A stretch of 64,000 bases of DNA from a virus. Its lineage: Duplodnaviria; Caudoviricetes. A program made the translations under genes and the position numbers. Position 1 is the stretch's first letter, and each line of letters opens with the position of its first letter. The DNA lies in IMG/VR virus record IMGVR_UViG_3300020050_015145, positions 8,208 to 72,207 of that record; one strand, written 5' to 3'. The notes below the pieces were generated by a model. That model made no database searches and was not told the origin of the DNA. It saw only the letters and a program-made list of their open reading frames with translations. Shown here in pieces: positions 10,980 through 54,976 of this stretch.

Positions 10980-11831
10980 ATGCCTTACTTAAATGAAAGT
11001 GAAATGCTTAGAAAAATCAAATTGCGCCGCTTCCTGCGTGAATTCGCGGGAGGAAACCAGAAGAAATTCGCGGACCTTACCGGTCTTCAACAATCGCAGG
11101 TAAGCCAACTCGTGGGCGACCGCAGGGAGGTGACCGATAAAATGTGGATTAAAATACTTGGAAGCCTGAATGTACCCGACACAGCTCTGCCCGAAGATTA
11201 CGATATGCTTCAGCAGGAGTTGGAGGTGAGCAAAAAAAGCGTTCACCAGGGAAGGCAACTGGAAGAGTACATGCGCAAACACAACATAAAGAACATTGAC
11301 GTTGCCAAAATACTGGGTGTAAGCCCCCCGATGGTAAGCATATACAAATCTTCCGAGCAGTTTCGCCCCGATGTAGCTGAAAAAATTAACAAATTCCTGA
11401 CTGTCAACGAAGACCCGGTGCTGTACGGAGCGTCTTCCGGTACACCCGACTCGCTGCCCTTGATTTCCGACAGCGTTCGCAACCTCACAGACTTATCCAA
11501 ATGCCCGCGTTATGAAATTGTCCAAAAAACCGAGTATGACCTCAAAGACGCGGTTGTTATCAAGGTAGATACTGATTTTATGGAGCCCGTTTTTAAAAAA
11601 GACTCCGAATTGCTGGCCATTGCCGTGCCGTCTGCCAAATACAAATACCATACAGGTTTGACCGCCATCCACTACGCCGACATGGTAGCCATTGGTGAAG
11701 TAATGTCCAATGATTTGCTGGACAAAGGATTTATTACGCTTCAGCGGGGAAAAGGTGCCGTACTTCGCGTTTTGGGAGAGGATATTCAGCATTTGTGGCA
11801 TATTGCACTGGGCCTTAACGTGAAGTTTTAA
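10980..11831 (+). CDS. CI-like repressor with two HTH domains and degenerate S24 domain
   Basis: HTH1 NQKKFADLTGLQQSQVSQL, HTH2 KNIDVAKILGVSPPMVSIY; TDFMEP in place of GDSMEP. Confidence 0.8.
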   Translation: MPYLNESEMLRKIKLRRFLREFAGGNQKKFADLTGLQQSQVSQLVGDRREVTDKMWIKILGSLNVPDTALPEDYDMLQQELEVSKKSVHQGRQLEEYMRKHNIKNIDVAKILGVSPPMVSIYKSSEQFRPDVAEKINKFLTVNEDPVLYGASSGTPDSLPLISDSVRNLTDLSKCPRYEIVQKTEYDLKDAVVIKVDTDFMEPVFKKDSELLAIAVPSAKYKYHTGLTAIHYADMVAIGEVMSNDLLDKGFITLQRGKGAVLRVLGEDIQHLWHIALGLNVKF

Positions 11832-13063
11832 TGGTTACCTTTCGTGTTGAACTTGCTTCGGCCCCGAATCGGGACGGGCAGTTTCCGGTACGTTTGCGCA
11901 TTACCGCCGACCGCCGACACAAACGTATCAGCTTGGGCTTCGCCATTGCAAAAAAAGACCTGAACCCCAAAGCTACCTTGGATAAGGCGAATTGGATACG
12001 CGCCGGCCATCCGCAGCAATTGGCCTATAACAATCGAATTCGGGAAAAATGTGAGGCAATTATCAATGCGGTTTCTGAGTTATCCAAAGAGACCGAACCT
12101 ACCCTTGAAGCAGTGGAGCACGCATTGCTCAATGGCAACGACCAGTCTTTCATTGCTTATTACCGAAAGCAACTGGAGTATGTGGGCATAAAGAATTCGC
12201 TGGAAACGGCGGAAAACTACGGCGTACCGCTGAATAAAATCATCAAGCAGTTGCAGGAGAAAGGGAAAAGCGATTTAACCTTTCGGGAACTTACCCTGGC
12301 GTGGCTGAAAAGCTTTGAGACTTACATGATTCAAATCCCCAATTCAAAAAACACGGTAAGCAAACAATTGGGGTTTGTCAAGACCATCGTCGGTGCGGCA
12401 ATAAAAGACAAGCTGCTGAGTCCTCTTAACAACCCGTTTCAGGATTATAAATTTTCTTTTGAAGAAACGGAGCGCGAAAAACTAAGCCCGGAAGAAGTTA
12501 AGCAATTGGAGGATATGCCGCTGGACCCAACCTACCGCGTTTGTCACGCCCGCGACATTTTTCTTTTTATGTATTACACCCACGGGATGCGCATTGGTGA
12601 TGCGTTGTTTTTAAGGGTCAGCAACATTCACAAAGAGCCCGAGGCGTGGCGTTGCAGATACCAAATGCACAAAACCGACTCGCGGCGTAATGTGAAGCTC
12701 ACGGAAAAAGCCCGTTTGATCGTGGAGAAATACGCCGAAAACAAAGGCCCGAATGACTTTTTATTTCCTTTTGTGGAGCTGGGGAAAAACTACAACGACG
12801 AAAGAACTTACAAAGATACAAAATCAGCCAAGACATCCATCGTAAACAAGGGACTTGGCAAAATAAAGGAAAGGCTGGGCTGGGAGAAGAATTTGACCTG
12901 CCACATTGCCCGTCATACCTTTGCCGATGCGGCCCGGGTAAAAGGTGCCAATACCTATACCATTTCCAAAGCGCTGGGTCACGCCCGATTGTCCACCACC
13001 GAAAAATACCTGAAATCCTTTGACCAAAATGCAGTGGATGAAATTAACGATATATTTGAGTAG
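11831..13063 (+). CDS. int: tyrosine recombinase (phage integrase, Bacteroidota type)
   Basis: GMRIGD, HIARHTFA, LGHARLSTTEKY catalytic motifs; N-terminal arm-binding domain PVRLRIT...RISLG. Confidence 0.95.
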   Translation: MVTFRVELASAPNRDGQFPVRLRITADRRHKRISLGFAIAKKDLNPKATLDKANWIRAGHPQQLAYNNRIREKCEAIINAVSELSKETEPTLEAVEHALLNGNDQSFIAYYRKQLEYVGIKNSLETAENYGVPLNKIIKQLQEKGKSDLTFRELTLAWLKSFETYMIQIPNSKNTVSKQLGFVKTIVGAAIKDKLLSPLNNPFQDYKFSFEETEREKLSPEEVKQLEDMPLDPTYRVCHARDIFLFMYYTHGMRIGDALFLRVSNIHKEPEAWRCRYQMHKTDSRRNVKLTEKARLIVEKYAENKGPNDFLFPFVELGKNYNDERTYKDTKSAKTSIVNKGLGKIKERLGWEKNLTCHIARHTFADAARVKGANTYTISKALGHARLSTTEKYLKSFDQNAVDEINDIFE

Positions 13064-16370: not shown

Positions 16371-16459
16371 TATTGACCTGATTTATTTTCACAAAACACA
16401 AAAAAAACCGCTCGGAAATCTCCGAACGGTCTTAGCATCACGCAACGATTAAAAATATT

Positions 16460-16900
16460 TTAGATAGGCCCCGCCCATTTCAATCGGCAATACCAAAGCG
16501 TTGACTGCGTTCCGCTTCCCACCCCTTTGATTCTGATGTGGGTATAAGCGTAATTATCCACCTCAATGGTTTTGGACTGAAACACCCCCGATGTGGTATT
16601 GACAAAAGCCACTGTGTCCGCCGTGGGGTGCGTCGTAAAGTTTGTGCCGTCGTTTGACACTTCCACCGTAAAGGTAATGTTGGCCGTACCGGAAAGCTCT
16701 TTTCCGATAATGTGCGCCGTAACTTTTTTCCACGCTCCGCCCAGCTTCAGGGTTTGCGTGTCGGTGGTAGCGTCGGCCGTTGTGTCGCTTTTGTAGGTGT
16801 TTTGGTCGGAAATGGGAGTTCCTATTCCTGTTACGCCTGACTGAGCAAAGCTCGTAACGGCCAGCATTAAAATTGCAATAAAAGATACTATGGTTTTCAT
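16460..16900 (-). CDS. secreted beta-rich protein
   Basis: Signal peptide MKTIVSFIAILMLAVTSFA|Q; TVEVSNDGTNF motif. Confidence 0.75.
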   Translation of the reverse strand: MKTIVSFIAILMLAVTSFAQSGVTGIGTPISDQNTYKSDTTADATTDTQTLKLGGAWKKVTAHIIGKELSGTANITFTVEVSNDGTNFTTHPTADTVAFVNTTSGVFQSKTIEVDNYAYTHIRIKGVGSGTQSTLWYCRLKWAGPI

Positions 16901-16936
16901 TGTGTAAAAAGCGGAATACCACCGCCATGTTTTTAG

Positions 16937-17299
16937 TTAAATTTTTCTATACTTCTTCCAAACTTTGCCGCCAAACGCCCTGACAAAACCGTACATCGTA
17001 TATCGTTGCCACTTGGGAACTCCTGCCTTTTGCATCAATTCCAGCCAAATAATATCTACCTGTTTGCGTGTTAAGTTGTGCGAAGAAGGTACTTGGTACA
17101 TATAATCATGCACAATACTTGGCATTGCGGCCAATCCCTGCGGAGGTATCAACCACCAGACCGCCTGCGGCACAGATGCAAAATCGGTCGTGAATCCCGA
17201 CGTAATCAGCACCGAACCGAACGCACAATCCTCCACAACCTCAAACCAGTCGTATTTTCCTGAATGTTTCACAAGGATGATGCGCGGGTAAGTGGTCAT
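16937..17299 (-). CDS. DUF1353 family protein
   Basis: GFTTDFASVP...SIVHDYMY. Confidence 0.85.
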   Translation of the reverse strand: MTTYPRIILVKHSGKYDWFEVVEDCAFGSVLITSGFTTDFASVPQAVWWLIPPQGLAAMPSIVHDYMYQVPSSHNLTRKQVDIIWLELMQKAGVPKWQRYTMYGFVRAFGGKVWKKYRKI

Positions 17300-17721
17300 T
17301 ATTCGGGATTTTCTGGTTCGGGCGTTGGTTCCGCGTAAAGCGGGTCACCGTTTTGCTCTTCGATTGGGGCAAGCCCGTAGCCGTAAATGCCCGCCAACCC
17401 TGTGGCCGCTGCGTACTTTTGCGCCTCGGTTCCAAAAATCAACCCCTGCACAATTTGCCCGATTTGAACTTCCGCTTGCTCCTGCGTAGCGCCCAATCCA
17501 ATCGCCTTTTCGACAAATTCAGAAGTCAACGCATTTAGCCCGCCAAACTTCGTTCCTGTATCCAGAAGAAATTCAACAAAGAATCCGAATTCAATATTGG
17601 GCAAAAGCGATATAACAATATTGGTATTGATACGCGCCGCAATCCCTACTACCGTGCGCGTAATGTTGGCTTGGTCGGTGAATGTCCGTGTTGGATTCAC
17701 CTTGAAAAAGTAATTTTCCAT
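17299..17721 (-). CDS. hypothetical protein
   Basis: 140-aa ORF in late operon. Confidence 0.65.
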   Translation of the reverse strand: MENYFFKVNPTRTFTDQANITRTVVGIAARINTNIVISLLPNIEFGFFVEFLLDTGTKFGGLNALTSEFVEKAIGLGATQEQAEVQIGQIVQGLIFGTEAQKYAAATGLAGIYGYGLAPIEEQNGDPLYAEPTPEPENPE

Positions 17722-17723
17722 AA

Positions 17724-18227
17724 CTATATTGTTTTAAGTTGAAAGTGCATTCCGTCCTCATTCTTTCCTTTCCAGTATCCGCCCCAATCGAAGCCGGCAT
17801 CCGTGAAGCATTTTACAAATCCCTCCGAAAGCGTTGACTTTCCCCCAAAAGGATTCCATGCGGCATTCACATCAATAGCCACCGCCCAACTGTGAAGGCT
17901 CCAAGAATCTTTGCCGCGTTTGTAGCGGATGTTAAAACACCCATCCCACGTTTTCAATTCATCCGCATGACCCCTTGCAATCAGGTTCCGAAAAGCTTTT
18001 TCCAAAGGAGCTGTCAAAATTCGATTACAGTACAGACGGTTTGGCAAGGCGGGTATGGCATCGTTTATGCTCGTTGGAATATCCCACAGTACAAGCAGGG
18101 AGCCTTCCCACGCGACAGACGCGACAGGAAGCCCCCATTTTTTGATACATTGATTACTTGTCAGCATCTTTTTTGCCTCTTGTTTTACCTCCGCCCATTT
18201 TCCCAAGTACCGCGTCGGTTCCTGCAT
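17724..18227 (-). CDS. endolysin, peptidase M15 family
   Basis: SLHSWAVAIDVN (SxHxxxxAxD) and DGMHFQL. Confidence 0.85.
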   Translation of the reverse strand: MQEPTRYLGKWAEVKQEAKKMLTSNQCIKKWGLPVASVAWEGSLLVLWDIPTSINDAIPALPNRLYCNRILTAPLEKAFRNLIARGHADELKTWDGCFNIRYKRGKDSWSLHSWAVAIDVNAAWNPFGGKSTLSEGFVKCFTDAGFDWGGYWKGKNEDGMHFQLKTI

Positions 18228-18651
18228 TGGCTACATCGTCCGCACGCCGTTCAAGTGTCTTGAAAAAACGCGTAACGATTTTCAGAATCAGAACACCCGT
18301 GCAGCCTATCAGAAAATACACCGCATTCACATCCCACTTGGGCAATACCAATTCATGTACCGTGGAAGACAAAGCCAGCGAACACGAAAAGCCGATTCCC
18401 ACCTTTATCCAAAATTCGGAGGTTGAAAGCGTCGTTGATAGCTTTGCACCTGCTGCGCTGCCGGCACCTGCTGCCAACGCTTTGATGGCGAATGCAGTTG
18501 CGGCACTTCCTAAGAAGCCCAAAATCGTTGCCAGTACTGGCACACCTGCAAGGATGCTCAATATGCCGTACAGCGCGTATATTGTCAGTTCCATAAGCAT
18601 ACTCGTATTTTTAGTGGGGTTGTTGGTTGCTAATTGTGCTTGTGTTTTCAT
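18154..18651 (-). CDS. putative holin
   Basis: Several TM helices and a basic C-terminal tail, adjacent to the endolysin. Confidence 0.6.
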   Translation of the reverse strand: MKTQAQLATNNPTKNTSMLMELTIYALYGILSILAGVPVLATILGFLGSAATAFAIKALAAGAGSAAGAKLSTTLSTSEFWIKVGIGFSCSLALSSTVHELVLPKWDVNAVYFLIGCTGVLILKIVTRFFKTLERRADDVANAGTDAVLGKMGGGKTRGKKDADK

Positions 18652-18667
18652 ATCAGTAGGGTATAAT

Positions 18668-19069
18668 TTACTTTATAGTGACAATCAAAACACCCACCCC
18701 AACGCCTCCCAAAGCCGACAAAACGGGCCGCAAAATCTTGTATTTCCGTATTCGCCAAATCACTTTCCGCTCATTCCAAACTTCAAGATTCAGCACTTTC
18801 AACAAACGCGCCTGTTGGTTGGCGTTCAGCGTTTTGATATTGGTCAAGGCTCGCTTCAAAAGGTTCGATTCGGCAAGCAAATCAGGATAATCATTCAGAA
18901 TCTTAATGGTTGAATCAATCTCAATTTGACTTCCGCACAGACAATTTGAATCCGTTTTTTTTGTTAGCTGACTCCAGCTTTTTGTTGCGCACAGAATCAG
19001 ACTTAAAAGGAATAGGCACAGCATTAGCACTTGCCCGCTTGGTTTCGATAACTTCAATTTTGATTTCAT
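18668..19069 (-). CDS. putative spanin-like protein
   Basis: N-terminal signal (..CATKSWS|Q), coiled coil, C-terminal TM; overlaps upstream gene. Confidence 0.45.
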   Translation of the reverse strand: MKSKLKLSKPSGQVLMLCLFLLSLILCATKSWSQLTKKTDSNCLCGSQIEIDSTIKILNDYPDLLAESNLLKRALTNIKTLNANQQARLLKVLNLEVWNERKVIWRIRKYKILRPVLSALGGVGVGVLIVTIK

Positions 19070-19241
19070 CTTCCTTAATTTGCTCTTTTAAGTCCAAACC
19101 TCCGCAACTCTTCACCGCCAAAATCACCATGCAAATCATGGCCACGAATACGATTAGCGCAACTGAGAACCTGAACGCTTTCATAGCCTCTCCTTCACCT
19201 TTTTCTTCGTGGCAGCACTTGCTTTTTTGTACAGTCAACAT
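18921..19241 (-). CDS. putative spanin-like membrane protein
   Basis: N-terminal TM ending LAVKSC; overlaps the next gene by 149 nt in the lysis cassette. Confidence 0.45.
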   Translation of the reverse strand: MLTVQKSKCCHEEKGEGEAMKAFRFSVALIVFVAMICMVILAVKSCGGLDLKEQIKEDEIKIEVIETKRASANAVPIPFKSDSVRNKKLESANKKNGFKLSVRKSN

Positions 19242-19288
19242 CCCCCTGTGGACGAATCGGCATCGTTAGGGATATGCTTGGCTACATG

Positions 19289-19759
19289 TCACGCTGTGGG
19301 CATATACCCCTCATAGTCAGGTATTAAGTTTTGCGGCACAAAATAGGTGAAACGAACCATGCGACGCTTAGTAACAGGATTGAAGAAATAGTCCTGCGGA
19401 TGCGCTTGATGTATCTCGCAGATTGTCACCCAATCACCCAGCCCTTTGTTAAGAACTGCCACGCCCTGCTTTGCCTTTTCTTCGTCGATATAGACACACA
19501 GGCGCAAAACAGGGATATTATAGTTTTTGTCGGGCTGACCCGTCCATGCGTTATTGCGCTCCATTTTGGACACATTCTCAGCAATCAACGCATCGTCGTG
19601 AGGAATGCGAAGTCTAACGAAAGCAGTTTTCATGTTCTCAAAAGCAGAACCACGTAAGGCGTCAACGACTGAAACATATACAGGTTGTACTTTGGCTTTC
19701 TTTTGCGCCTGCGCCGCTACTACCAACAGCGCTAAGCAGAGTATAAATAAGTTTTTCAT
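19289..19759 (-). CDS. secreted hypothetical protein
   Basis: MKNLFILCLALLVVAAQA|Q; start revised. Confidence 0.7.
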   Translation of the reverse strand: MKNLFILCLALLVVAAQAQKKAKVQPVYVSVVDALRGSAFENMKTAFVRLRIPHDDALIAENVSKMERNNAWTGQPDKNYNIPVLRLCVYIDEEKAKQGVAVLNKGLGDWVTICEIHQAHPQDYFFNPVTKRRMVRFTYFVPQNLIPDYEGYMPTA

Positions 19760-19796
19760 CTTCCTCGATTTGTTTTTACAATCCAACTGCAACTTT

Positions 19797-20630
19797 TTAT
19801 TGTGGCAGCGGGTATCTAATAATAACTATTCCGGAGGCGCCACCCATGCCGGGTGGGGTACTGGAATGGCCGCCACTTCCTGTATTTGCGGCTGGCGGTG
19901 TGCCGGTGTATGTGAATACCGGCGCGGGCGTGACATGTGCTCCATTGCCACCAATCGAATAGGTTACCGATGCGCCCGAAATTGAGTAGCTGCGCCCCGC
20001 CCCGCCCATACCCCGAGCGGCGTTTGTTCCCGCCGTTCCCGCCCCGCCGGCCCCGCCGCCGCCGCCGGAAGATTGATTGGTAGAAAGCACTCCGTCGCCG
20101 CCATTGAAGCCATAACCGGTTGCTCCGCCATTGGAGGTTTGAGAGGCCGCTCCAGCCGAAGATCCGCTGAAGCCCGCCTTACCACCACCGGACCCGCCAC
20201 CGCCGCCGCCAACACTGCCATCGGACCCGCCGCCGCCACCGCCAAAAGCTGTGATGTTGTCGAAAACGGAATTCCCTCCCGTTCCTCCTTTGCTACCGGA
20301 GATACCAATTGCACCACCCACCCCTACTGTGACGGTGTATGTTCCCTGTGTAACAATTCTCCCTGTTTGATAGGCAAGCCCGCCGGCCCCGCCGGCCCCG
20401 CCGGAATAGCCATACCCACTTGCTCCTCCCCCGGCAACTACCAGCACGTCAATTGTGTCAACCACGTTAAAAACTGCTGTTCCCGAGGTGGTGAAGGTGT
20501 GAATTCTGTACCCTCCAATGTCGGTCACAACCCCGCCATCGACCGGCGAAGCCATGATGTAGGGGTTGATTATCGTTTGCCCTGTCGTCTGAATTGCGGC
20601 CAGCAACAGGAATATCAATAGCTTTTTCAT
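19797..20630 (-). CDS. glycine-rich tail-fibre-like protein with signal peptide
   Basis: MKKLLIFLLLAAIQTTG|Q; GGYRIHTFTTSGT, VLVVAGGGA, GGASGIVIIRY; TAATG coupling to upstream gene. Confidence 0.75.
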   Translation of the reverse strand: MKKLLIFLLLAAIQTTGQTIINPYIMASPVDGGVVTDIGGYRIHTFTTSGTAVFNVVDTIDVLVVAGGGASGYGYSGGAGGAGGLAYQTGRIVTQGTYTVTVGVGGAIGISGSKGGTGGNSVFDNITAFGGGGGGSDGSVGGGGGGSGGGKAGFSGSSAGAASQTSNGGATGYGFNGGDGVLSTNQSSGGGGGAGGAGTAGTNAARGMGGAGRSYSISGASVTYSIGGNGAHVTPAPVFTYTGTPPAANTGSGGHSSTPPGMGGASGIVIIRYPLPQ

Positions 20631-21706
20631 TAGTTCATGTATCCGTTTATGGTCACCTTGCCTCCCTTTGCCGTTCCGTTTCCGACTTGATCGACATCGA
20701 TGGTTATTTTTGCCCATTTTGCCCATGAGGTATCCGATATGACCGGGGCGGTCGCTGCTGTGTTACTGCCTTCCTCTGTATTATCCACAGTTAATTTTGT
20801 AGACAGGACGGTAGTGCCGGCTTTGTTAATATCGACCGTGAAAAGCGACCCCGACACCTGGGGGGTCGACAGCCCCAAATGCATCTCTGTTACCGTCATG
20901 CTGTAAGGCATGTAGAAAGTCACCTTTGAGGTGCCGGCGGTAATGAATGAGGTTTCGTCCGAAAAGGAGACAACAATAGAAGCAGGTGTATTGATAGTCA
21001 GGGTACCGGCACTACCCGAATTACCCATTGTTGCATAAGGTCCTACTATATTAAGAGAAGTAATCTCTCCTGAACTTCCGACATTAGAACCTTCTTCCCT
21101 GTATTGTATATTTGCCTGTTTTGCGTTCAGCGCCGTTTGGGTCGCGGTTGAAACAGGTTTGTTGGCGTCGGAAGTGTTATTGGTAGCATCCACCCCTAAT
21201 AGGATTCTCGCCTGCGAAACGGTTAAATCCTGCACCGCCGCTGAACTTCCTGTATTATTGCCTTTCAGCGAATTGGCCGCAGCATTGGCGAGTTTTGCGT
21301 TAGTAATCGCATTGTCCGCTACGGTCGTTGCCAAAACCGGCTCACGCTTATACCTGCGACCGTTGGCCGCAACAATGCAATCCGTTCCGTCATCTGCCGT
21401 AGCGCTGCCTGATATGTACCGAAACCAACCTTCTTTCCCTGAATCGGTGATGTAGATTAATTCGTAATTGGTGTTATTGATAAGCCGCGTATTGGCAATT
21501 GTCTTGGTGTAATACTTCTTTTTGAGCGTGTCAACATGGTCAATCACATCATTAAAAGTCTCACGAAGCTTAACCGCCTGAATGGACTTATTATTGGTCG
21601 AAGGGAAATACGTATTGATTTCGCCCCTGATAGCAGGAATAGGCTGCTGTCCGAAAGACGAAACGGCCAGCGAAAGCGCCAAAAGCGCCAGTGTTATTTT
21701 TTTCAT
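20630..21706 (-). CDS. tail-fibre-like protein with signal peptide
   Basis: MKKITLALLALSLAVSSFG|Q; NNTSDANKPVSTATQTALNAK tail-repeat motif; GWFRY...DDGTDCIVAANGRRYKR. Confidence 0.75.
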   Translation of the reverse strand: MKKITLALLALSLAVSSFGQQPIPAIRGEINTYFPSTNNKSIQAVKLRETFNDVIDHVDTLKKKYYTKTIANTRLINNTNYELIYITDSGKEGWFRYISGSATADDGTDCIVAANGRRYKREPVLATTVADNAITNAKLANAAANSLKGNNTGSSAAVQDLTVSQARILLGVDATNNTSDANKPVSTATQTALNAKQANIQYREEGSNVGSSGEITSLNIVGPYATMGNSGSAGTLTINTPASIVVSFSDETSFITAGTSKVTFYMPYSMTVTEMHLGLSTPQVSGSLFTVDINKAGTTVLSTKLTVDNTEEGSNTAATAPVISDTSWAKWAKITIDVDQVGNGTAKGGKVTINGYMN

Positions 21707-23982
21707 AATTTCGCTATAAACAGTCTATTGCCTTCTGTTTTTCCTGAATACATCTTCCCTTCGATTTCAACTTCAAATTCAGTCCAGCGTCCGGGTCGCG
21801 ACCAAACATCCTGCACTAACAGCACTTTTTGCCCGTTATTTTCACACACCAAAGCAAACGGCTGGCGCTTTTGTAGTGCATCTATGTACCAGCTTCCGTT
21901 TGTGATTTCGTCTACCGTGACAGCCGACAAAACGGAGCCATCTTTTGTTGCTCTTTTGTAGGTAAATTTGGGAGCCCTGCGGCTTCCGTCCATGGCATCC
22001 TGAATGAGCGAATAGGTATAGGCGGCCTTAATGGTTGCATTGATGGCCATCGCCTCTTTGCCGATATAAAACTTATCCCCCTGCGGAGCGCGCCCCTGTT
22101 CAAATGTCCAGACTGAAAAACCGCCCGCCTCGGTATAGGCATTGTTGTATTGTGCTGTGCCGGAAGGGTTCCAGCCCACGGGTCCGGGACACCAATAGAA
22201 TAGGTATTTTGAGGTCAACAACCCCAATGTCATGTTATCTTCCCACTGCGTAGGCGGGTACATGGGCTTATTGTCGGTACGTCGTGCTCTTGCATTATGT
22301 TCAGGGATTTCTACGACGTGGTTGGGAGGAAAAGACACAAATTCGGTTTCCTGAAACGGCCACGAGAAGTACACCTGATCTTTGTCCGGCCACGATCTGC
22401 GCCACAATTCGGAGGCGTCCAGTGATTTTAGGTAGGTAAGTTGAGGGCTGATGTTGCGCCCGTTGCCGTCGTTTTCAGAAAGATTGTTGTCGTAACTTAC
22501 ATAGCCATACCCTGTATTTATTACCGAATAAGGATTATACTTTTTCTGCAAGTCGTTCAGTCTGCTATATGCTTCTTCGTACTTTGCAATGTCTTTATTC
22601 TGCTGGCCGTAGTTTGTGTGAGGGGTAAGCTGAACACCGTCAAGCATCAAGTTGTTTGGCGAATTTGAAGGAATGTCCATCCAATTGTAAGCCATTGCCC
22701 CGCGCTGTTTCAATCGCTCGATTACGTAACCCATATTTCGGGTGAAGTTTGGAGCGGCATAATCTACAATCCACGTTTCGGAGGCGTGAGGCTCAATGTC
22801 AAAAGCAACAATCTGTTCGATTGGCAATCCGTTGGCAAAATCAATGCACTCCTGTTCGGTCAGGTCGTGAAAGCCTTTGCGACTTGGTAAACTAAGTAAA
22901 TAACTGCTTAGCGAATGGGCATAGAGCTTTAGGTGCCTTTTGCCTTTTTGCCAGTTAAACTGTATGCCGAGTTGTTTTTTGCGCTCGTCGGTTTCATCCA
23001 AAAATTCGTACTCGAAGCCGTAAGAGCGATTTTTAAGCGAAAAAGCAGGGAGTTTTGAAAAGGCAGACGGACGGCCGATTGGATTCGGGGAGTCCCCTGC
23101 CGGGTTCCAAGTCTCCGATTTTGGAACGACGTAGAAAAACAATTCAGAGCGCCGAAACTCGGCCTTTGGATTATCGTACATCGCCCTCCATACCTCGCGA
23201 ATACTTGATTGTGAAATAGAGTATTTGGAAACGTGGTAGAGTCGATAGGGTAAAATGGGCTCATTTTCCAACTTGCCGCAATTTTCCAAATCCGTCCATC
23301 CGTTTAGGGTATAAGAGGCCGACTGCAAGCTATTGCCTATATCCGAAAGAAGTAACTGTCCGTTTAGTTGCGAAATTCGTAGGTCTAAGTGCTCATCGGG
23401 ACGGCTTTCGATGTAGCGCAACTCGTATTCGCCCGCCAGCTCTGCTGAGGGCAGAAATGGGTCTTTGAGGGCAAAAAGATTGTGCCCTCCTGTGTGTCTA
23501 TCTGAATTTGGCAAAAGTGCTGCATTCGACACGTCGAAAGCTCTTTTTCCTTTTGCCGGATCGGAATTGCAATTAGTTGCCCTAATTTGCAGTTCATAAG
23601 CTCCGGCCGTCAGCTTTTGTTGAATAGAAACCTGCGAGGAAGTAAGCTGTCCTGTATTGCCGCCGCTCACAAACGCGCCCGATTGCGTAAGTGTCCAATC
23701 TATCGACCGTACATCTACCGCCTGAAAGGAAAATTCAATACGACCGTCACTGTACTTTGCAGTAAGCAGGTCTAACCCTGTCTTGCAATCAAGTTTTGAG
23801 ACTACAACGGGCGCATGAGGATTTAGCCTGCTTTCGATGTATTCGCGTACCCATTGGCGGGTAGCAACAGTGTCTTTGTTTTCGGTTTTCGGGTTTTTGG
23901 GTTTGGACAGTTTTTGTCCAAAACTTTGCCCAATGCCTAAAAGCATCGTCGTTAGCAGGAGAAGAAGTTTGAGGTTTTTCAT
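21703..23982 (-). CDS. large secreted protein (Ig-like domain plus possible carbohydrate-active domain)
   Basis: MKNLKLLLLLTTMLLGIGQSFG|Q; beta-sandwich-like N-terminal region; aromatic-rich C-terminal region. Confidence 0.7.
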   Translation of the reverse strand: MKNLKLLLLLTTMLLGIGQSFGQKLSKPKNPKTENKDTVATRQWVREYIESRLNPHAPVVVSKLDCKTGLDLLTAKYSDGRIEFSFQAVDVRSIDWTLTQSGAFVSGGNTGQLTSSQVSIQQKLTAGAYELQIRATNCNSDPAKGKRAFDVSNAALLPNSDRHTGGHNLFALKDPFLPSAELAGEYELRYIESRPDEHLDLRISQLNGQLLLSDIGNSLQSASYTLNGWTDLENCGKLENEPILPYRLYHVSKYSISQSSIREVWRAMYDNPKAEFRRSELFFYVVPKSETWNPAGDSPNPIGRPSAFSKLPAFSLKNRSYGFEYEFLDETDERKKQLGIQFNWQKGKRHLKLYAHSLSSYLLSLPSRKGFHDLTEQECIDFANGLPIEQIVAFDIEPHASETWIVDYAAPNFTRNMGYVIERLKQRGAMAYNWMDIPSNSPNNLMLDGVQLTPHTNYGQQNKDIAKYEEAYSRLNDLQKKYNPYSVINTGYGYVSYDNNLSENDGNGRNISPQLTYLKSLDASELWRRSWPDKDQVYFSWPFQETEFVSFPPNHVVEIPEHNARARRTDNKPMYPPTQWEDNMTLGLLTSKYLFYWCPGPVGWNPSGTAQYNNAYTEAGGFSVWTFEQGRAPQGDKFYIGKEAMAINATIKAAYTYSLIQDAMDGSRRAPKFTYKRATKDGSVLSAVTVDEITNGSWYIDALQKRQPFALVCENNGQKVLLVQDVWSRPGRWTEFEVEIEGKMYSGKTEGNRLFIAKL

Positions 23983-24037
23983 AAAAGAGTGTATTGTCAC
24001 AGACAGCACTCGAAAGCGCTGTCTGTGAAATGAATTA

Positions 24038-25273
24038 TTAAGCCGGAGTGGTTAATTCAAAACCGAAGATGCCGGTTACATCTTTTAAGATGTTTCCGCT
24101 CACGCTCGTAAAGAAGCCTGTAGGACGCTTGTAAAGTCCATAAAGCAATGAAGGCGTTACGTCAAGTGTTGGATATGCCTTGGTTGAAACCGCCATTTGA
24201 GCGCGGAAATCCACGTCCAATTCAAAGAAGTCGCCGCCTAAACCTGCAATGGAGCTGTCCAAAGCGGATTGCTCTACGCGGAAGCTGAGGCTTCCGTAAG
24301 AGTGGTCAAACCAGTTGCCGCTGTTAACAAAGCCATTTTCTCCGTGCTCAGGGCAAGGGCAGAATGCCGCTGCCGCCGTATCGAAGGCAATGATTTTGTT
24401 CTCACCGTAGATGGTATCCACAGCAGGGTCAAAGTACCACAACACAGGCAGTTTTGCGTAGGCTTCTGCCAAGTTTACACCTGCGTTGTTGACGGCCATA
24501 ATCCCCTGTTTGGCCATGTACTTGCTCAAGCGCTGTCCACCCACCACGATCAAACGACCTTTCAATGAGTTCAAAAGCATCGTTTGCTGGAAGGCCTCCA
24601 ATAGGTTTTCGGTTGCTTTTCCCGCAGAGTCAAATACCTCAACAGGCACACAGGGAGCCGCAGCGGTTGGAGTTACTTCATCCGGATACGCGGCATTTTT
24701 ACCGATACCGGCCACCATCGAAGTGGTCAGTACGGAGTCAACGGGCTTTAACAAGGTTTCGTCCACCGTGCGGTAAATGTCCATACCGATGTCAAGCATC
24801 TTATCGCCGTATTTTGCGCCGTCAACACCGCCGTAGGGTTTTACCTTACCGTCAATCAAGCCGTTGATATACTTGAAGTAGCCAGGCTCCTTCATTACGT
24901 CCGAGATAGCCCATTGAATACCCCACTCCCGACGCAGGTTGAAATCAACCGTTAAGTTGGTAGCGCCCTGAATAGCCGTTCCCGATGTTTTGGTACGGGT
25001 ATTGCGACCCGTGCCGGCATAAGCGGGCTTAAAGTTGGTCGTTACGCTAAAATAAGGAAGCTCGGTTTCCGTGTCGAACTTCTTGGTTGTGCGGTTATCG
25101 CGCCCGCCGCCCGCAAAGGCTTTGACCGGGTCGATTTCGTTGATGATCTGGCGAAGCTCAGGAGCGCGGAGCGCCTTGAGCATACCTAAGTGAGAGAATT
25201 TGTACTCGTTGCCGGGTACGTGACCAACGGCCGCATACGTGATGCGACCGCCACTCAAATTAATGTCATTCAT
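24038..25273 (-). CDS. major capsid protein (putative)
   Basis: 411 aa, directly downstream of a scaffold-like gene in the head cluster; context-based. Confidence 0.7.
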   Translation of the reverse strand: MNDINLSGGRITYAAVGHVPGNEYKFSHLGMLKALRAPELRQIINEIDPVKAFAGGGRDNRTTKKFDTETELPYFSVTTNFKPAYAGTGRNTRTKTSGTAIQGATNLTVDFNLRREWGIQWAISDVMKEPGYFKYINGLIDGKVKPYGGVDGAKYGDKMLDIGMDIYRTVDETLLKPVDSVLTTSMVAGIGKNAAYPDEVTPTAAAPCVPVEVFDSAGKATENLLEAFQQTMLLNSLKGRLIVVGGQRLSKYMAKQGIMAVNNAGVNLAEAYAKLPVLWYFDPAVDTIYGENKIIAFDTAAAAFCPCPEHGENGFVNSGNWFDHSYGSLSFRVEQSALDSSIAGLGGDFFELDVDFRAQMAVSTKAYPTLDVTPSLLYGLYKRPTGFFTSVSGNILKDVTGIFGFELTTPA

Positions 25274-26713: not shown

Positions 26714-27535
26714 TTAGCCCGCCATTCTTTCGTATAACTCCTTTGAGATGGGCAGCAGTCGGTGCCGGCAGTTGTACCCGCCCGCATACATAAAAATACT
26801 TTGGGCGTTGGTGCCGGGAATTTTGCCGCCCCATTCTTTTTTTGCCCACTCTTTCACTTCCGCTTTGGTATAGGCTTTGCCCACCCGTACATTGCAGAAC
26901 TCACGTGTGGTTTTAATGCGTGTGCCCATGTAGTAATAATGCTGCGCTCCCAGTGCCTTGGTTACTTCGTCGGTATAAGCCCGCGAGTATTGGTACAGAG
27001 CATCCGAGGTATAGGTGGTAAAGTATTTCATGGGTTGACCTTTTTCGCCCAATATTTTCTTTAACGCCTCTCTGAAGTCGCTTTTTCGGGATTTGCTGTA
27101 CACATGAAACTGCAAGGTTTTTACAATTTCACTCACGTATATCTGCTGCACTCCTTCACCCGTCAAAGAGCGACGCACCGCTTCCAGCGCTGCCCGGTAG
27201 GTATTGGTAACTTCCAATCCTTTTTGAGGAAAATCAAAGAACACTTTGCCGAAATACTCCTCCAGCTTGGTGATGGATTCGGCCATTTTGGATACCAAGT
27301 CACCCACCAAAACCGTAAAGCCCACGTTTTGAATCAACAAAGGCAAATTGGTCTGCATTTCAAGCAGTACACTCATGTTCTGAGCGAGGCTCCCGCCCTG
27401 AAAATCAAATTTGTCAATGAACTCAAAGAGTTTGTCAAGCAATTGCGAATTGATCGACAGTATTCGACTGTTTAATGAATCTATCCATTTTGACAGCAAT
27501 TCTTCCCATTTTTCAAAGTCTTCAATCGGCTCCAT
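26714..27535 (-). CDS. minor head (MuF-like) protein
   Basis: YMGTRIKTTREFC...GGYNCRHRLLP. Confidence 0.75.
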   Translation of the reverse strand: MEPIEDFEKWEELLSKWIDSLNSRILSINSQLLDKLFEFIDKFDFQGGSLAQNMSVLLEMQTNLPLLIQNVGFTVLVGDLVSKMAESITKLEEYFGKVFFDFPQKGLEVTNTYRAALEAVRRSLTGEGVQQIYVSEIVKTLQFHVYSKSRKSDFREALKKILGEKGQPMKYFTTYTSDALYQYSRAYTDEVTKALGAQHYYYMGTRIKTTREFCNVRVGKAYTKAEVKEWAKKEWGGKIPGTNAQSIFMYAGGYNCRHRLLPISKELYERMAG

Positions 27536-29474
27536 CTTCTTCTATGGGGTCAGGTTTGGGACTTGGAAACAGTACAGGCAAAGCCAGCGGCTTGGGGATG
27601 GCACTGCTGTATTTTTCGGACAGGCTCAAAAGCAATTCCTGTTGACTTTTCAGGTCTAACAGGTAGAATTCGGGGCTTGCCATTTCAGCTTCGTCCAACA
27701 ATGCATTAAGCAATACCGAAAAAATCAACTGCTTTACCATGGCTTTGTGTGAATCGCTGCCCGTTTCGGCCATTTGCGAAAACAAATTCAGCAGCAACAC
27801 TTTTTCAGCAGGCTTGTATTCGCGGTGCGGGTCCAGCCGTGATTTGATGGTGTACCTTTTGTATTCCGCCGAATCTTTCCCTGCCTGGTATTCAATCATT
27901 CTGGATTGAATGATACTTATCAGTGCAGTGTCGTACCCGTTTGAAATAGCTTCGTTTAACTCGGCCCGGGTTTCGTCCATGCCCGAAAGCATAAAGCGAC
28001 TTGGCGCAATGACCTTGGGTAGTTGTGTATCGTCCACGCCTTGGAGTCCAAACATATAATTGGCCTCGCACAAATACCCCCATTGCAACAGATTGCACAG
28101 GTGTTTGGCCAGTGTAATGCAGTCGCGGTAGAATTCCTCCCGATCCACTTCTTTGGCCGTACCTGATTCAATCAGCGGCGTACGGTTGTGAAACGCCATG
28201 TGAACATCCGCGTAAGCTTCGTCCACTTTGCGCTTGTATTCGCTTACCAATTCACGCACCGATTCAATGGGTCTTGGGATAAATCCGCCCGGCACGGGAG
28301 GAACATTGCCGATGGCATTATCGGTAAATCCCTCTTTTTTGGGCATGGAATAAACAATAAAATCCAGCGCACTGGACCCGATTTCCATTCCTGACCCCTG
28401 ACAGTGGCCGCACGGCTTTTTCTCGCCCGTCAGCAATCCTTCCCGGTCGCGTACCGAAATAAAACCTTTGTTGCAATCGTCGGCCGAACACGGCTTGGTT
28501 GCAATTCGGTATTCCTGACTGTTGACGTGATAATTGAATTCAATCTGAATGTCACTGTAGCGCGACTGAGCGTCTTTGATGTGCTCCAGTGCATTGGTGA
28601 CGGTCGAAGAAAACAACTCTTCCCCTTTGCCGTTGAATTTCAGGCGTTTCTTGCCGATTTTTCGGGCAGGTATGCCTTGACAACGGTGCAAAAACGGAGT
28701 AAACAGCGTTAAAACCTCGTTGCTTTCGGGAGAAATCTCATTTGAAAGCCCCCAAATGGAAAAATTGCTTTTCAGCGCTTTGTTGCTGCCGGTACGCATT
28801 GTTTCCCGAACCACCGTATAGCTTTCGTCGTCGAAGAAATACAGCAGCAATCCGTTGTTTTCTATCTTGCCGGTTGCTTCGTTGATGACTTTTACTTCAC
28901 GCATTGAGCGAAGCACGGCGTACTTGCCTTTTCTGAACGCAAGTACATTCTCGCAGGAAATCAGCTCTGCTTTGGGTTTAAAGTAATCCGTATCCGATGC
29001 GGGTATTTCGTGCGGAACAAACGCCAATACGGCATTGGGGTCTTTGACAAATTCTTCTTTCACAAAGTCAAAGAACCAGTCCTGAAAACCCGATTTTTCC
29101 ACAAAGGAAGATTTATCGTGGGCTTTCAGCAGCTCGGTTTGCTTACCTTCCGACTTCCAGACCACCGAAAAATCATCGCTCTCCGGAATGTAGTCCAAGC
29201 GCTCAATTTGTTTGTCCAAAAACCCTTTGAGCGGATTGCGGTATACCTCTTGACGATACTTTCTATGGTCTTTTTTCTCCCGTGGCCTGTTTTTATTCAG
29301 GTAATCGGGGTATTCATCCCCGAAAGCTTCTTCAATGTCTTTTTTGATTTTTTCGCTCTCCTCATAATATTCGTGCGTCATTCCTTTAGGCAGTTTCCCG
29401 TCTATTGAAATATTTTTAAGTACATCCAGGATTTGCGAAAGCTTCAGCATAACAGGTAAGTAACTGAGGGACAT
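27522..29474 (-). CDS. portal protein (putative)
   Basis: 650 aa upstream of the MuF-like gene; FVKDPNAVL, ESGTAKEVDRE; Cys-rich insertion. Confidence 0.7.
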   Translation of the reverse strand: MSLSYLPVMLKLSQILDVLKNISIDGKLPKGMTHEYYEESEKIKKDIEEAFGDEYPDYLNKNRPREKKDHRKYRQEVYRNPLKGFLDKQIERLDYIPESDDFSVVWKSEGKQTELLKAHDKSSFVEKSGFQDWFFDFVKEEFVKDPNAVLAFVPHEIPASDTDYFKPKAELISCENVLAFRKGKYAVLRSMREVKVINEATGKIENNGLLLYFFDDESYTVVRETMRTGSNKALKSNFSIWGLSNEISPESNEVLTLFTPFLHRCQGIPARKIGKKRLKFNGKGEELFSSTVTNALEHIKDAQSRYSDIQIEFNYHVNSQEYRIATKPCSADDCNKGFISVRDREGLLTGEKKPCGHCQGSGMEIGSSALDFIVYSMPKKEGFTDNAIGNVPPVPGGFIPRPIESVRELVSEYKRKVDEAYADVHMAFHNRTPLIESGTAKEVDREEFYRDCITLAKHLCNLLQWGYLCEANYMFGLQGVDDTQLPKVIAPSRFMLSGMDETRAELNEAISNGYDTALISIIQSRMIEYQAGKDSAEYKRYTIKSRLDPHREYKPAEKVLLLNLFSQMAETGSDSHKAMVKQLIFSVLLNALLDEAEMASPEFYLLDLKSQQELLLSLSEKYSSAIPKPLALPVLFPSPKPDPIEEDGAD

Positions 29475-30493: not shown

Positions 30494-30733
30494 TTACTTA
30501 ATTATGTGGGTGTAGGTTCCGGGCAACTCCCGCTTTAAAACCACAATGGCCACGTTTTCCGCCGCTACCGCCTCTCCCCATTTTTCGCCGTTAATTTCCA
30601 CCGTAACGGTTTTGCCCGTTTCGGCTTTGACCACAAACGTATTTTTGTTGGCAATGTAGTCCAGTTGGGTTTTTACCTTTTTTGGTTTTTCCACTGCCAC
30701 TACCGCCTTTTCTTCTTCCTTTGGAGTCTCCAT
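30494..30733 (-). CDS. hypothetical protein
   Basis: 79-aa ORF in late operon. Confidence 0.6.
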   Translation of the reverse strand: METPKEEEKAVVAVEKPKKVKTQLDYIANKNTFVVKAETGKTVTVEINGEKWGEAVAAENVAIVVLKRELPGTYTHIIK

Positions 30734-37399: not shown

Positions 37400-37695
37400 T
37401 TTCTTTTGACGGGTTTGTCAATGGATTCTCCCATTTGGTTTTCAAATTCCATTTCAACCATATCCCGCACCTCCAAAATGCGCTCAATCTGCCCGGAGCG
37501 TACACTTTCGGGCTGATGCAGATACAAAGTGATGGTGTGCAAAGCGTTGAATACTCTGACGGACTGGGCTTTGGTCAATGTAATGTGCCCGCGTTTGCGC
37601 TTGGCCATGCCCAGTATTTGACGAAGCATGTTGTGATTGGCGCGGCCTATTTCTTCCTGCGTACGTTGTTTGGTTGGTTTGACAGGTGGCATCAT
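37396..37695 (-). CDS. hypothetical protein
   Basis: 99-aa ORF overlapping both neighbours by 4 nt. Confidence 0.6.
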   Translation of the reverse strand: MMPPVKPTKQRTQEEIGRANHNMLRQILGMAKRKRGHITLTKAQSVRVFNALHTITLYLHQPESVRSGQIERILEVRDMVEMEFENQMGESIDKPVKRK

Positions 37696-40600
37696 CTGTT
37701 ATAGAGGTTTTCGTAATAGGCTACGTGCTGTTGATTATGACTTATTTCCGCAATACTCACGCGGTTGGCGTCAACGTTAATTTTAAGTTCCGGTTTGGAG
37801 CGAATCACCTCCGTTAAATTCTTTACCTCTTTTTCCAATCCCTTCAAATCCACCGATGTGCCCAATCTGTCTCCCTCTAAGTTGAAATTCATTCGCCCAA
37901 ACTCCTCAATTCTCAAACTGCCGAATTTCTTCTGCAATTCCTCAAAGGCTAAATACCCGTCCACTAACTTTTCGTTGGGCAACTCTTTACCCAGCTTTTC
38001 GTTGAGCGTTCTTTTTACTATCCGCTCTCCCTTGTCAACCATCGCCGGCACCGTATCCCTTCCGTCCGGATAACCCAATCCATCCACCCAAGGCGTTCCT
38101 TCAAAGTAGCTTTTGCCCGTAGCTGACACGTAACCCGTAGCATTTCTGATGGTGAAGGAATTCCCCGCTGCGTCATAAGCCGTAAATTGCCTGTCTTCGT
38201 CAGTGTATGTCAGGGTCATTGCGTTTTTGTTCTGGTCAAATGCCTCATTGACCGCCTCCAGATTATCTGCCCGGAACGGTGTTCTGTTGGCTTTGCGCTG
38301 GGCAATCAGGCCTTCCTTTATGTTACTGGTCCATGTGTCAGGAACGGTCACAATGCCACCGCTGCCTTCACCCATCAACGCCTCCAAATCCCTGATAGAG
38401 CCTTGCAAATCTCCCACCGCTGCGTCAATTTTGCCCCGGTTGAAGATATTCCGCTTTCCTTGCAGCATGGCAATTTCGGCGCGTATTTGCGCAATAGCCA
38501 TCTGGATTTGCGACTGCATAATTTGCTTATTGGCCTGTAAAACAAAGTTGGCATAGTCTCTTTCCGCTGCCGCTTTTTGGGTGGAGGCATCCTGTTTTTT
38601 GGCAGTCACTTCATCTTCGAGTCCTTTGACGGTTATTGCCAATTGACTTTGAAGCTGGGTTATTGTAGCTTTCAGTGCCGTTTCTCGTGCCACATAGTCG
38701 TTTTTCAGCGCTTCCAATTTAGCGTCGCGCTCATCCGCCATCTCCTTGAACTTATCCTGATAGGATTGCTCCAAAGCATTTACCGCTTCTTTTTCTTCTT
38801 CCTTCAGCTTTACCGCCCCGTCTTTGGCTTCTTGGTTCAATTGCTTGGTTGCCAGACTAACCCCTTTGGATTTGTCCAACTTGGCATCCTCGACCTCTTT
38901 GTGAACGTCGGCAATTCTTTGGGCGTAGGCATTGGTGACTTCTTCGCGCTCTTTTTCGTCCGTCAGCGTGGCTAAGATGCGGTCGCGGGTTGCGGCTAAA
39001 CGATTGGTTTCGTCGGTTCGGTAACGTTCCAATGCCTCATTGCGAAGGCGGTCAATAATAGTAATCGTTTCATTTTCGTCGGCCTTGGACTGCTCAAGTA
39101 ACTGTTGCCTGTAGTCGTACGTGGCCTGTAACGATGCCTTCTCTTGGCTTTCTTTCTCTTTTAATGCCGCCAATTGTTGGTCGTAGGCTTCTTTGACGGC
39201 GTTGGTTTGTTGCTCGTACGTATCTTTGGCCGTGTCCAATTGTGATTTCAGGGCATCAACCTGCGTATCGGTGAAATCTTCAAGCCTTTTGATTTCTTCC
39301 TCTTTGGCCTCAATGTAGGCGTCCAACTCATCTTCAATGGCCTGAATTTTCCTATCCCGCACTTCCTGTGCCGTTTCAATTTCCCGTTGAAGCTTTTTGA
39401 TGCGGTATTCTTCTTCAAGCGCCTGTTGCTCGTACATACCTGCGACGATTTCCCCCATCTGCTTTTTAGCGGAGGCGGTCATGTCCTTTTTCATCTTGGA
39501 GTCATTCTCCAGTGTAAGTTTGGTATAAGCAGCTTGGTATTCAATCAGTTCTTTGGCTTCGGCGTACTCGGTTTGTTTGGCGTAGTGCTCATCAATGATT
39601 CGTTCTCGCTCGGCGTACGAGCCTTTGAAGTCTTCGAGTTGAGCGTCCAGCGAATCGGCATTAACCCGAATAAGTGTGTCATAATAATCACCCATGACAT
39701 TTGCCAAGGTGTCGTAGGCTTCAATGATAGCCGTATTGGTTTCTACCAACATATCGTTGATAGCCGCCGCAACTTTCTGCATTATATCAGCCACCATCAT
39801 GGCCATATTGAGGGATGCCATAGATGCCGCACCCTCAGCTTCGACCAGATTTTGCTTTGACTCCGCTACTTTTAGCGAAGATTCGGCATATTGTGTTGAG
39901 TGTTCGCCATACAGGATTTTAATGGTGCTGCTGTAGGCCTGCGCATTCTTTACCTGATTTTCGTAGGTCGTAACGGTTTTGCCGCTAATCAAATCGATGT
40001 CATCCACCATTTTGATGGCAAAATTGGAAAAGTCGCTCAACGCGCTGTTTAATGATCCCACAAACCCCAATACCGCCTTTAATCGCTCATTGTGCGATTT
40101 AACTTCAATCTCCGCCGTTTTTTCAGTAACCTTTTGCTCTTCTTCGTTGATTTTGCGAATCGCCTCCAACGTATCCAACTTGGCCTGTTGTTTTTCTTTT
40201 TCGGTTTGTTGGGTGTTCAAAAGCCGCTGCACCTCCGAAGCCTGCACGGATAGCGACAAATCGGTTTCAATCTCAACTGACTGCCTGACAAATTCGATTT
40301 GCCCCGCCGTAATATTTACTTGGCTTTCTTTAATAAGGGCTTCCTTTGCGCGATTGGCTTTGATAATAATAGCTTCAATAGCTAAGACTGCGTCCTCCTC
40401 TGTTTTAACATATTCAACTTTATGCGCATTAACCTTTGCAATCTCCTCCTTCATGCCACGGTCAATTATCTCCAATTTATCACTTAGGCTTTTTTCTTCT
40501 GCCTCTTTGATTAATATGGCAATCTCATTGGAGGAGAAAAACGCCTGCTCTTTAAGCTGCTTGTGCTTATCGGCATCCTTGCCGACTGCCATTGCATTGT

Positions 40601-44888: not shown

Positions 44889-44912
44889 TTATCTATCATC
44901 CCCCAGCCTCCT

Positions 44913-54914: not shown

Positions 54915-54976
54915 CAAATATAATAAGATTTGCAAATATTAATAATAATACATAAAAATATTAATAATATACTTAC
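54915..54976 (-). promoter_or_regulatory. promoter element and operator
   Basis: Minus TATATTTG (54915-54922); 54956-54975 is identical to 42182-42201. Confidence 0.55.

Follow-up and report, generated by a model that had tools for sequence, protein, structure and literature searches.

Fibre-like proteins with signal peptides in a temperate Bacteroidota phage: candidate virion appendages matured in the periplasm

Why would a tailed phage place signal peptides on proteins that look like tail fibres? The question is raised by a 64,000-nucleotide stretch of an IMG/VR virus record (IMGVR_UViG_3300020050_015145; Duplodnaviria, Caudoviricetes), hereafter the window, which covers bases 8208-72207 of a source record of 72,207 bp that has direct terminal repeats and is estimated to be complete. 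Within a 7.5-kb block on the minus strand, an initial annotation had singled out five genes, here called A, B, C, D, and J, as each encoding a signal peptide followed by Gln. All five starts and cleavage motifs are found where they had been placed (Table 1), and the gene order confirms that the five lie between the capsid and lysis genes or just past them. We propose, as the best explanation, that this block is the host-recognition and release module of the phage, with its fibre-like and enzyme parts made as Sec pre-proteins. The kinds of protein involved, tail fibre and depolymerase, are already known; the export route is the new part.

The genome encodes a tyrosine integrase together with a large terminase, a tape-measure protein, and a weak match to a portal protein, and thus belongs to a tailed phage with a temperate lifestyle. 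Its capsid protein is 66% identical to that of a prophage in Runella salmonicolor S5 (Cytophagia, Bacteroidota), a relationship that places the host phylum as Bacteroidota. Furthermore, the integrase of a near-identical relative carries the Bacteroidota-type domains Arm-DNA-bind_5 and SAM_5. The phage is temperate and siphovirus-like, with Runella-like (Cytophagales) hosts. The relatives compared were the contigs L002 and L004, the near-identical contig L005 from a metagenome-assembled genome (GCA_963852445.1), whose gene A is 96% identical to that of the window, and the Runella prophage (L006). A tblastn comparison of 50,697 phage records with the capsid protein, A, and C returned zero matches, and the phage thus has no close cultured relative.

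Leaders with glutamine at position +1

Each leader of A, B, C, D, and J starts with an n-region rich in Lys, continues with an uncharged hydrophobic core 10-14 residues long, and has small residues at positions -3 and -1. A core of this length is too short for a membrane anchor. Each predicted cleavage site is followed directly by Gln; gene A also offers an alternative site, LGIG↓Q. We scanned every open reading frame (ORF) of the 72,207-bp genome with a heuristic rule that asked for a positive n-region, 7-15 uncharged hydrophobic residues as the core, and a small residue at both -3 and -1. Leaders of the signal peptidase I (SPI) type on real genes were confined to the 7.5-kb block. The rule otherwise picked out a lipoprotein (44913-45167, plus strand), a membrane protein of 68 aa, and the spanin-like genes. 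A sixth SPI-type leader was found in the lysis cassette, on the gene at 19069-18668.

Gln occupies position +1 in all six of these SPI-like leaders, an outcome with a chance probability of ~1e-7 given a Gln frequency of ~4%. Among SPI substrates of Bacteroidetes, Gln is found at +1 in a mean of 71% (Bochtler et al. 2018, PMC5837995), and pyroglutamate (pyroGlu) has been demonstrated in Cytophaga too (PMC5837995). The six-of-six count fits this Bacteroidetes Q-rule, and the products of A, B, C, D, J, and 19069-18668 have the predicted make-up of Sec/SPI pre-proteins. They resemble known Q-rule substrates (PMC5837995; PMC10653852) in combining a leader with Gln, and would use the same export and cyclase pathway of the host.

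Two other export routes were considered and rejected, those of type IX secretion system (T9SS) cargo and of lipoproteins processed by signal peptidase II (SPII). No T9SS C-terminal sorting domain (Por_Secre_tail or the type B C-terminal domain) was found in A, B, C, D, or J at thresholds of E 0.01 for Pfam and E 0.1 for NCBIfam, and no lipobox Cys is present at or near the cleavage site in any of the five.

The start codons of the leader-bearing genes appear secure because the stop codon of A overlaps the ATG of B (ATGA) and that of B overlaps the ATG of C (TAATG), because the GTG upstream of A lies inside the hairpin that follows the capsid gene, and because the conserved mature sequence of B homologues starts exactly at the Gln. 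No usable downstream start codon was found in these genes. Thus, as far as the sequence tells, cleavage sites are present and the true starts do not lie downstream of the hydrophobic segments, two of the points on which the initial annotation had staked its reading. That the leaders are artefacts of wrong start codons or of chance hydrophobic N-termini is highly improbable. Downstream starts have been called in some relatives (the 747-aa and 135-aa calls of L005, and P0277, which begins MAQKK..), but this is outweighed by the full leaders of most orthologues, the stop/start overlaps, the onset of conservation at the +1 Gln, and the recurrence of that residue in six of six SPI-like leaders.

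The leaders are also conserved. Among the 47 best database homologues of B, 43 have its N-terminal domain (N-domain); all 43 carry a leader, and 41 have Gln at +1 as judged by a crude rule. In an alignment of 21 B homologues (alignment A2), Q20 is invariant, as are ~30 other positions of the mature N-domain, and the leader sequences drift freely. Only 3 of 73 proteins that share the tip of B alone have a leader, and two of these three look like Bacteroidota proteins. Outside the Bacteroidota, where the signal might be expected to have been lost, the tip of B does occur on leaderless tail fibres. Leader and Gln are likewise retained by A, C, J, and the spanin-like gene in their orthologues from L002, L004, L005, and the Runella prophage, and the extra fibre-like genes present in L002 and L005 alone have them as well.

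We find the export of the leader-bearing proteins to the periplasm, as originally proposed, to be well supported by these conserved features, because a Gln at +1 matters solely after cleavage by SPI on the periplasmic face. The presence of such leaders on every fibre-like and sugar-cutting protein encoded beside the lysis genes suggests that these proteins very probably mature in the periplasm and not in the cytoplasm.

Domain architecture of the leader-bearing proteins

Gene B has the layout of a modular fibre. Its leader is followed by a conserved adaptor domain (residues ~20-125), which the precomputed Pfam annotation assigns to PF27114 'Phage_tail_beta', then by a shaft of DUF5907-like fibre repeats (NNTSDANKPVSTATQTALNAK), and then by a jelly-roll tip (222-358). 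Proteins annotated as tail fibre or virion structural proteins in phages of Sphingomonas, Rhodobacteraceae, cyanobacteria, and Xanthomonas share 37-57% identity with the tip and match B through their C-terminal part alone (tblastn, E 1e-9 to 2e-20). In addition, B matches PHROG tail fibre families, and its fold matches in BFVD are tail fibre, collagen-like fibre, and Mtd-N proteins. The alignment of B homologues contains conserved adaptor residues 20-125 followed by at least four unrelated C-terminal tip types. One adaptor with swapped tips is a hallmark of receptor-binding proteins.

The fibre-type motifs that had been noticed in the block are located in B, and the glycine-rich protein is C. 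The segment GWFRY..DDG..IVAANGRRYKR had been read as tailspike-like; this does not hold, as the segment is instead part of the conserved N-terminal adaptor of B. The genome contains no second copy of the tip of B, which is therefore unable to mimic a separate virion fibre. A narrow search with patterns from the N-domain of B found zero relatives in 185,579 species genomes and the IMG/VR collections. In L005, the B-type gene (L005:10001-11726) is called as two ORFs of 207 aa (leader and adaptor) and 351 aa (PTL_trimer, leaderless), which may mean that the gene is split or frameshifted, or that the assembly is wrong.

Gene A is, by its predicted structure, a probable TIM-barrel glycosidase-like protein and a putative polysaccharide depolymerase. 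Its leader is followed by a short conserved N-terminal helix (DTVATRQWVREY), an FN3 domain (63-157), a β-sandwich (166-290), a TIM barrel (~316-665), and a C-terminal β-sandwich. The AlphaFold2 model has a mean predicted local distance difference test (pLDDT) score of 83.6 and is confident over the TIM barrel and the flanking β-sandwich region. The top Foldseek matches are glycoside hydrolases throughout (GH66, GH13, GH31, and GH36). VIA-align gives a Z of 9.7 to a GH42 β-galactosidase and moderate values of 8.7-9.7 to GH42 and GH164 enzymes over residues 316-759. The FN3 domain aligns with those of T5 pb4 and λ gpJ (VIA-align, Z ~9). In distant homologues, A-like sequence is joined to an NPCBM or GH42 domain, and phage contigs contain leaderless homologues of the enzyme part of A beside M15 lysins and Ig-domain proteins. 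Searches of A against Pfam and NCBIfam gave zero matches, as did sequence searches of A, B, and C against Protein Data Bank (PDB) chains.

The three smaller leader-bearing genes are more diverse. The domain of C is well assigned (PF21722, E 1.2e-19, 71.6 bits against a gathering cutoff of 24.3; phrog_2295, E 4e-36). Its homologues are mostly leaderless phage-type proteins: of 120, ~85% have no hydrophobic segment at the N-terminus, and small numbers are prepilin-like or carry a leader. D is without ~30 C-terminal residues that form a Lys-rich tail in its four database homologues, and is possibly a truncated copy. The nearest ESM Atlas clusters of J are 91-100% viral, and its structural neighbours are DUF6385, Bbp16, and F5/8 type C domains. 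Orthologues of J that keep the leader and Gln are found in all four relatives (L002, L004, L005, and L006).

Where the leader-bearing proteins may act

On the minus strand, the genes run in the order portal, MuF-like, scaffold-like, capsid, A, B, C, D, two spanin-like genes, holin-like, M15 endolysin, p140, DUF1353, and J. Spacing across the block is tight or overlapping. The head, leader-bearing, and lysis genes appear to form a single late transcription unit, since the Bacteroidota -7 motif TAnnTTTG is absent from the coding strand between 28056 and 16345 (this is the canonical motif, and other promoter types are possible), the genes overlap or abut, and an intrinsic terminator follows directly after J. 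A hairpin between the capsid gene and A may set the ratio of capsid to downstream expression. Among the relatives, the lysis cassette may precede or follow the fibre genes, yet both always stay between A and J.

This organisation bears on the proposal that the proteins serve the lysogen, as surface adhesins or decoys. They could be cargo of lysogenic conversion, made from prophage genes and presented on the surface of the lysogen like the MAT adhesins of Bdellovibrio; the phage is temperate, and a relative is integrated in Runella salmonicolor. We consider this improbable. The constant position of the lysis and fibre genes between A and J, in what seems to be one late unit with the capsid genes, weighs against independently expressed cargo: no promoter motif lies within the block, its genes are translationally coupled to late genes, and a single terminator closes it. 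Neither Pfam nor NCBIfam provided a cell-surface sorting signal, the N-domain patterns recovered zero relatives outside phage contexts from the 185,579 species genomes, and analogous proteins are found in Cellulophaga phages with zero lysogeny genes in the parts of their records examined. Elsewhere in the window, two plus-strand genes at 44322-45167, between the anti-repressor and the tail genes, encode a 188-aa membrane protein and an 84-aa lipoprotein (..LLFAS↓C); these are better candidates for morons or lysogenic conversion than the leader block because of their opposite orientation.

The Cellulophaga phages provide the closest likeness to the block. In podovirus phi18:3 (NC_021794), gp085 (..FGYS↓Q), gp086 (..GVSA↓Q), and gp087 (..GLNA↓Q) are encoded just upstream of holin-like and endolysin genes. 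They are labelled, respectively, 'virion structural protein', 'structural protein', and 'tail protein', and their records state 'annotation based on experimental MS/MS proteomics analysis'; the tandem mass spectrometry (MS/MS) evidence that we cite for Cellulophaga phages consists of such GenBank/RefSeq record notes. Other virion proteins of phi18:3 detected by mass spectrometry (MS) are leaderless (gp104, gp112-115, and gp120-123). In siphovirus phi10:1 (NC_021802), five consecutive genes (gp091-gp095) each encode a leader and Gln. Of these, gp091-094 have the MS/MS note and are labelled structural, pectate lyase, or tail fibre; gp090 is MS-detected and leaderless. The leaders pass uncommented in the Cellulophaga phage records, and we found no publication that takes them up.

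Thus, like the block described here, both phages have runs of three to five leader-plus-Gln genes just upstream of holin and endolysin genes, with fibre and polysaccharide-degrading products. The first 63 residues of phi18:3 gp087, which comprise its leader and adaptor, are found again, at 59-89% identity, in 33 Cellulophaga phage records, on proteins with different tips that are labelled 'pectate lyase', 'tail fiber', or 'structural'. Proteins of the gp087 type therefore resemble the B family in having a conserved N-terminal module and swapped C-terminal parts. However, BLASTP between the Cellulophaga leader proteins and A, B, C, D, and J gave zero significant matches. Because sequence similarity is absent, the likeness is one of convergence or very deep divergence of design and not of inheritance. 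The two groups also differ in host, with Flavobacteriia infected by the Cellulophaga phages and Cytophagia by the phage described here, and in lifestyle, as only the latter is temperate on the evidence of the record parts examined.

Given these observations, we favour, with evenly balanced confidence, the reading that the leader-bearing proteins are exported, pyroGlu-capped, periplasm-matured virion appendages that dock at lysis through their conserved mature N-termini. Late in infection, the fibre-like and enzyme proteins would pass through Sec and be processed by signal peptidase I. The new N-terminal Gln would be cyclised by a periplasmic glutaminyl cyclase of the host, and the proteins would fold in the periplasm. 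When the holin, endolysin, and spanin-like proteins merge the compartments, the mature N-termini would dock onto particles assembled in the cytoplasm. The released virions would thus carry periplasm-matured fibres and a depolymerase.

Several points weigh against this reading. The evidence on A, B, C, D, and J comes from gene sequences, whereas virion presence of the Cellulophaga proteins is annotated from MS/MS; that the proteins join the virion during or after lysis is for this phage a prediction from its genes, to which the analogy with the MS-annotated phi18:3 gp085-087 and phi10:1 gp091-094 lends real support. The Cellulophaga proteins are analogous and not homologous, and their detection by MS in purified particles is compatible with an uncleaved leader or with mere copurification. 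In the same region of the Runella prophage, fibre-like proteins of 308 aa and 480 aa are leaderless, so that export is not obligatory for fibres on this type of virion. The receptor-binding proteins proper could be the tail-module proteins of 606, 785, 305, and 316 aa, none of which gained a usable match in Pfam, PHROGs (E 1), or the ESM Atlas. The five proteins show no enrichment of O-glycosylation sequons (D[ST][AILVMT]): A, B, and C have one site each, D has none, and J has two, numbers at or below chance. Finally, A resembles an ordinary secreted bacterial glycosidase as much as a virion enzyme.

The main rival is a different role, in which the exported proteins stay apart from the virion and act late in the envelope of the infected cell, masking or destroying receptors in the manner of T5 Llp or a viral neuraminidase and maybe aiding lysis. 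The glycosidase would cut nascent capsule, extracellular polysaccharide, or O-antigen, and the lectin-like fibres would bind or mask receptors. Together, these activities would block superinfection and keep progeny off debris. We regard this as a doubtful reading that nonetheless deserves serious weight. In its favour, the leaders are real and kept in relatives, the lysis cassette is invariably found among the genes of the block, and A is built, domain by domain, like a secreted bacterial glycosidase; contigs of other phages place leaderless homologues of its enzyme part beside M15 endolysin genes. P. gingivalis phages have moreover been reported to encode five Q-rule proteins whose function is unknown, and which the authors interpreted as envelope modifiers (PMC10367356). 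Nevertheless, the conserved adaptor and swapped tips of B are typical of virion-anchored receptor-binding proteins, and its tip is single-copy in the genome. Neither a T9SS C-terminal domain nor a lipoprotein signal is available for reaching the cell surface, and the analogous Cellulophaga proteins have been found in virions by MS.

We know of no studied case in which a tailed phage is assembled other than in the cytoplasm. The N-termini might be signal-like without full export, serving as transient inner-membrane tethers for the tail tip, or an unexported fraction of each protein might be built into the particle. The MS-detected Cellulophaga proteins carry such N-termini, and periplasmic assembly is unreported for them. 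We view incomplete export as unlikely, given that the hydrophobic cores have the length of a leader and not of an anchor, that the -3/-1 rule is kept, and that an invariant +1 Gln is meaningful solely after SPI cleavage on the periplasmic side (PMC5837995).

The reading of periplasm-matured virion appendages may extend beyond this phage. In tailed phages of Bacteroidota, assembly might be divided between two compartments, with heads and tails made in the cytoplasm, and fibres and depolymerases passing through Sec to the periplasm and attaching at lysis. The lineage described here would be an independent instance with its own adaptor. We advance this generalisation tentatively, with confidence that falls just short of an even balance.

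Neighbouring genes and known systems

The features of the block and its surroundings are collected in Table 1.

Table 1. Coordinates of the features discussed, with the predicted cleavage site marked by an arrow
Feature	Coordinates	Strand	ATG	Description
Intrinsic terminator	16404..16433	-		13-bp stem and T-run; 27 nt after the J stop codon
Gene J, 146 aa	16460..16900	-	16900	SPI leader TSFA↓Q, then small jelly-roll/discoidin-like domain
DUF1353 protein	16937..17299	-		Leaderless; Pfam E 1.1e-22; phrog_1158 E 7.5e-32, PHROG label 'tail assembly chaperone'
p140, 140 aa	17299..17721	-		Leaderless; downstream of endolysin
Endolysin	17724..18227	-		Peptidase_M15_4; Pfam E 4.8e-12; PHROG endolysin families
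Holin-like protein, 165 aa	18154..18651	-		Multi-pass membrane protein, by position and hydrophobic segments; zero family matches
Spanin-like gene 2, 133 aa	18668..19069	-		SPI-type leader KSWS↓Q, periplasmic domain, C-terminal transmembrane helix
Spanin-like gene 1	18921..19241	-		N-terminal membrane anchor if an internal Met is the start
Gene D, 156 aa	19289..19759	-	19759	SPI leader AAQA↓Q; very small family
Gene C, 277 aa	19797..20630	-	20630	SPI leader QTTG↓Q, then Gly_rich_2 domain
Gene B, 358 aa	20630..21706	-	21706	SPI leader SSFG↓QQ; modular fibre
Gene A, 759 aa	21703..23982	-	23982	ORF; SPI leader QSFG↓Q; putative depolymerase
Hairpin	24002-24029	-		Perfect 9-bp stem, T-run absent; between capsid stop codon and A ATG
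Putative major capsid protein	24038..25273	-		Immediately upstream of A; by position and portal-MuF-scaffold-capsid synteny; zero family matches
Tyrosine integrase	11831-13063
Portal	27522-29474			Weak match
Tape-measure protein	37692-42074
Large terminase	54973-56775			phrog_2

The two spanin-like genes overlap by 149 nt in different frames. The pair is unusual in that neither product resembles the classical outer-membrane lipoprotein o-spanin, and it recurs in L002/L004, L005, and the Runella prophage. Orthologues of spanin-like gene 1 are found in L002, L005, and L006, and those of spanin-like gene 2, whose leader is not of the lipobox type, have the cleavage motifs SYA↓Q and CFS↓Q. In L005, the M15 lysis cassette is replaced by other genes, directly after A.

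Paralogues of the leaderless p140 that have a leader and Gln are encoded just upstream of the fibre gene in two relatives (L002_127, L002:9617-10000; L005_137, L005:9247-9660). L002 has both forms, the leaderless one being L002_142. The leader-bearing and leaderless forms could be a small partner pair, with one for each compartment.

Just upstream of the portal gene, L002 encodes a 72-aa Acb2/Tad1-hairpin protein, an anti-CBASS/Thoeris sponge (L002:1581-1799). In the window, a 79-aa gene (30494-30733) lies near the portal gene, two genes upstream of it. Rfam and tRNA scans of the window returned nothing.

To our knowledge, textbook accounts uniformly have tail fibres fold and attach in the cytoplasm. 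The proteins of the block resemble the classical fibres and tailspikes, such as λ Stf and gpJ, T5 pb1 and pb4, and T4 gp37, in having a conserved N-terminal anchor, a variable tip, fibre repeats, FN3 domains, and depolymerase partners. They differ in bearing leaders, as the classical proteins have no signal peptide and are folded and attached in the cytoplasm. Some phage proteins are routed through Sec, including T5 Llp, λ Bor and Lom, and secretory endolysins. These, however, are lipoproteins, outer-membrane proteins, or lysins without fibre architecture, and are mostly expressed early or in the lysogen.

Two further systems share single features with the block. The MAT fibres of Bdellovibrio (Caulton et al. 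2024, PMC10769870) have a signal peptide and a β-rich N-domain of ~130 aa, followed by a shaft like that of phage fibres and by adhesin tips of various kinds. They are like B in architecture, that is, in the leader, conserved N-domain, fibre shaft, and varied tips; they are encoded by chromosomal genes of the predator and displayed on the cell surface, whereas B belongs to a late unit in a complete phage genome. The Q-rule proteins of P. gingivalis phages are read as envelope modifiers, in contrast to the tail-fibre and depolymerase architecture found here in a late structural and lysis unit. In the open-access literature searched, we did not find signal peptides described on the tail fibres of Bacteroidota or crAss-like phages.

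If the leader-bearing proteins are indeed exported and join the virion at lysis, completion of the virion would be coupled to lysis. Sec, SPI, glutaminyl cyclase, and perhaps periplasmic chaperones or glycosylation would then be dependency factors of the phage. Host-range work would need a periplasmic route to make these receptor-binding proteins correctly. Furthermore, annotation pipelines that count a signal peptide against a structural role would be wrong for phages of Bacteroidota.

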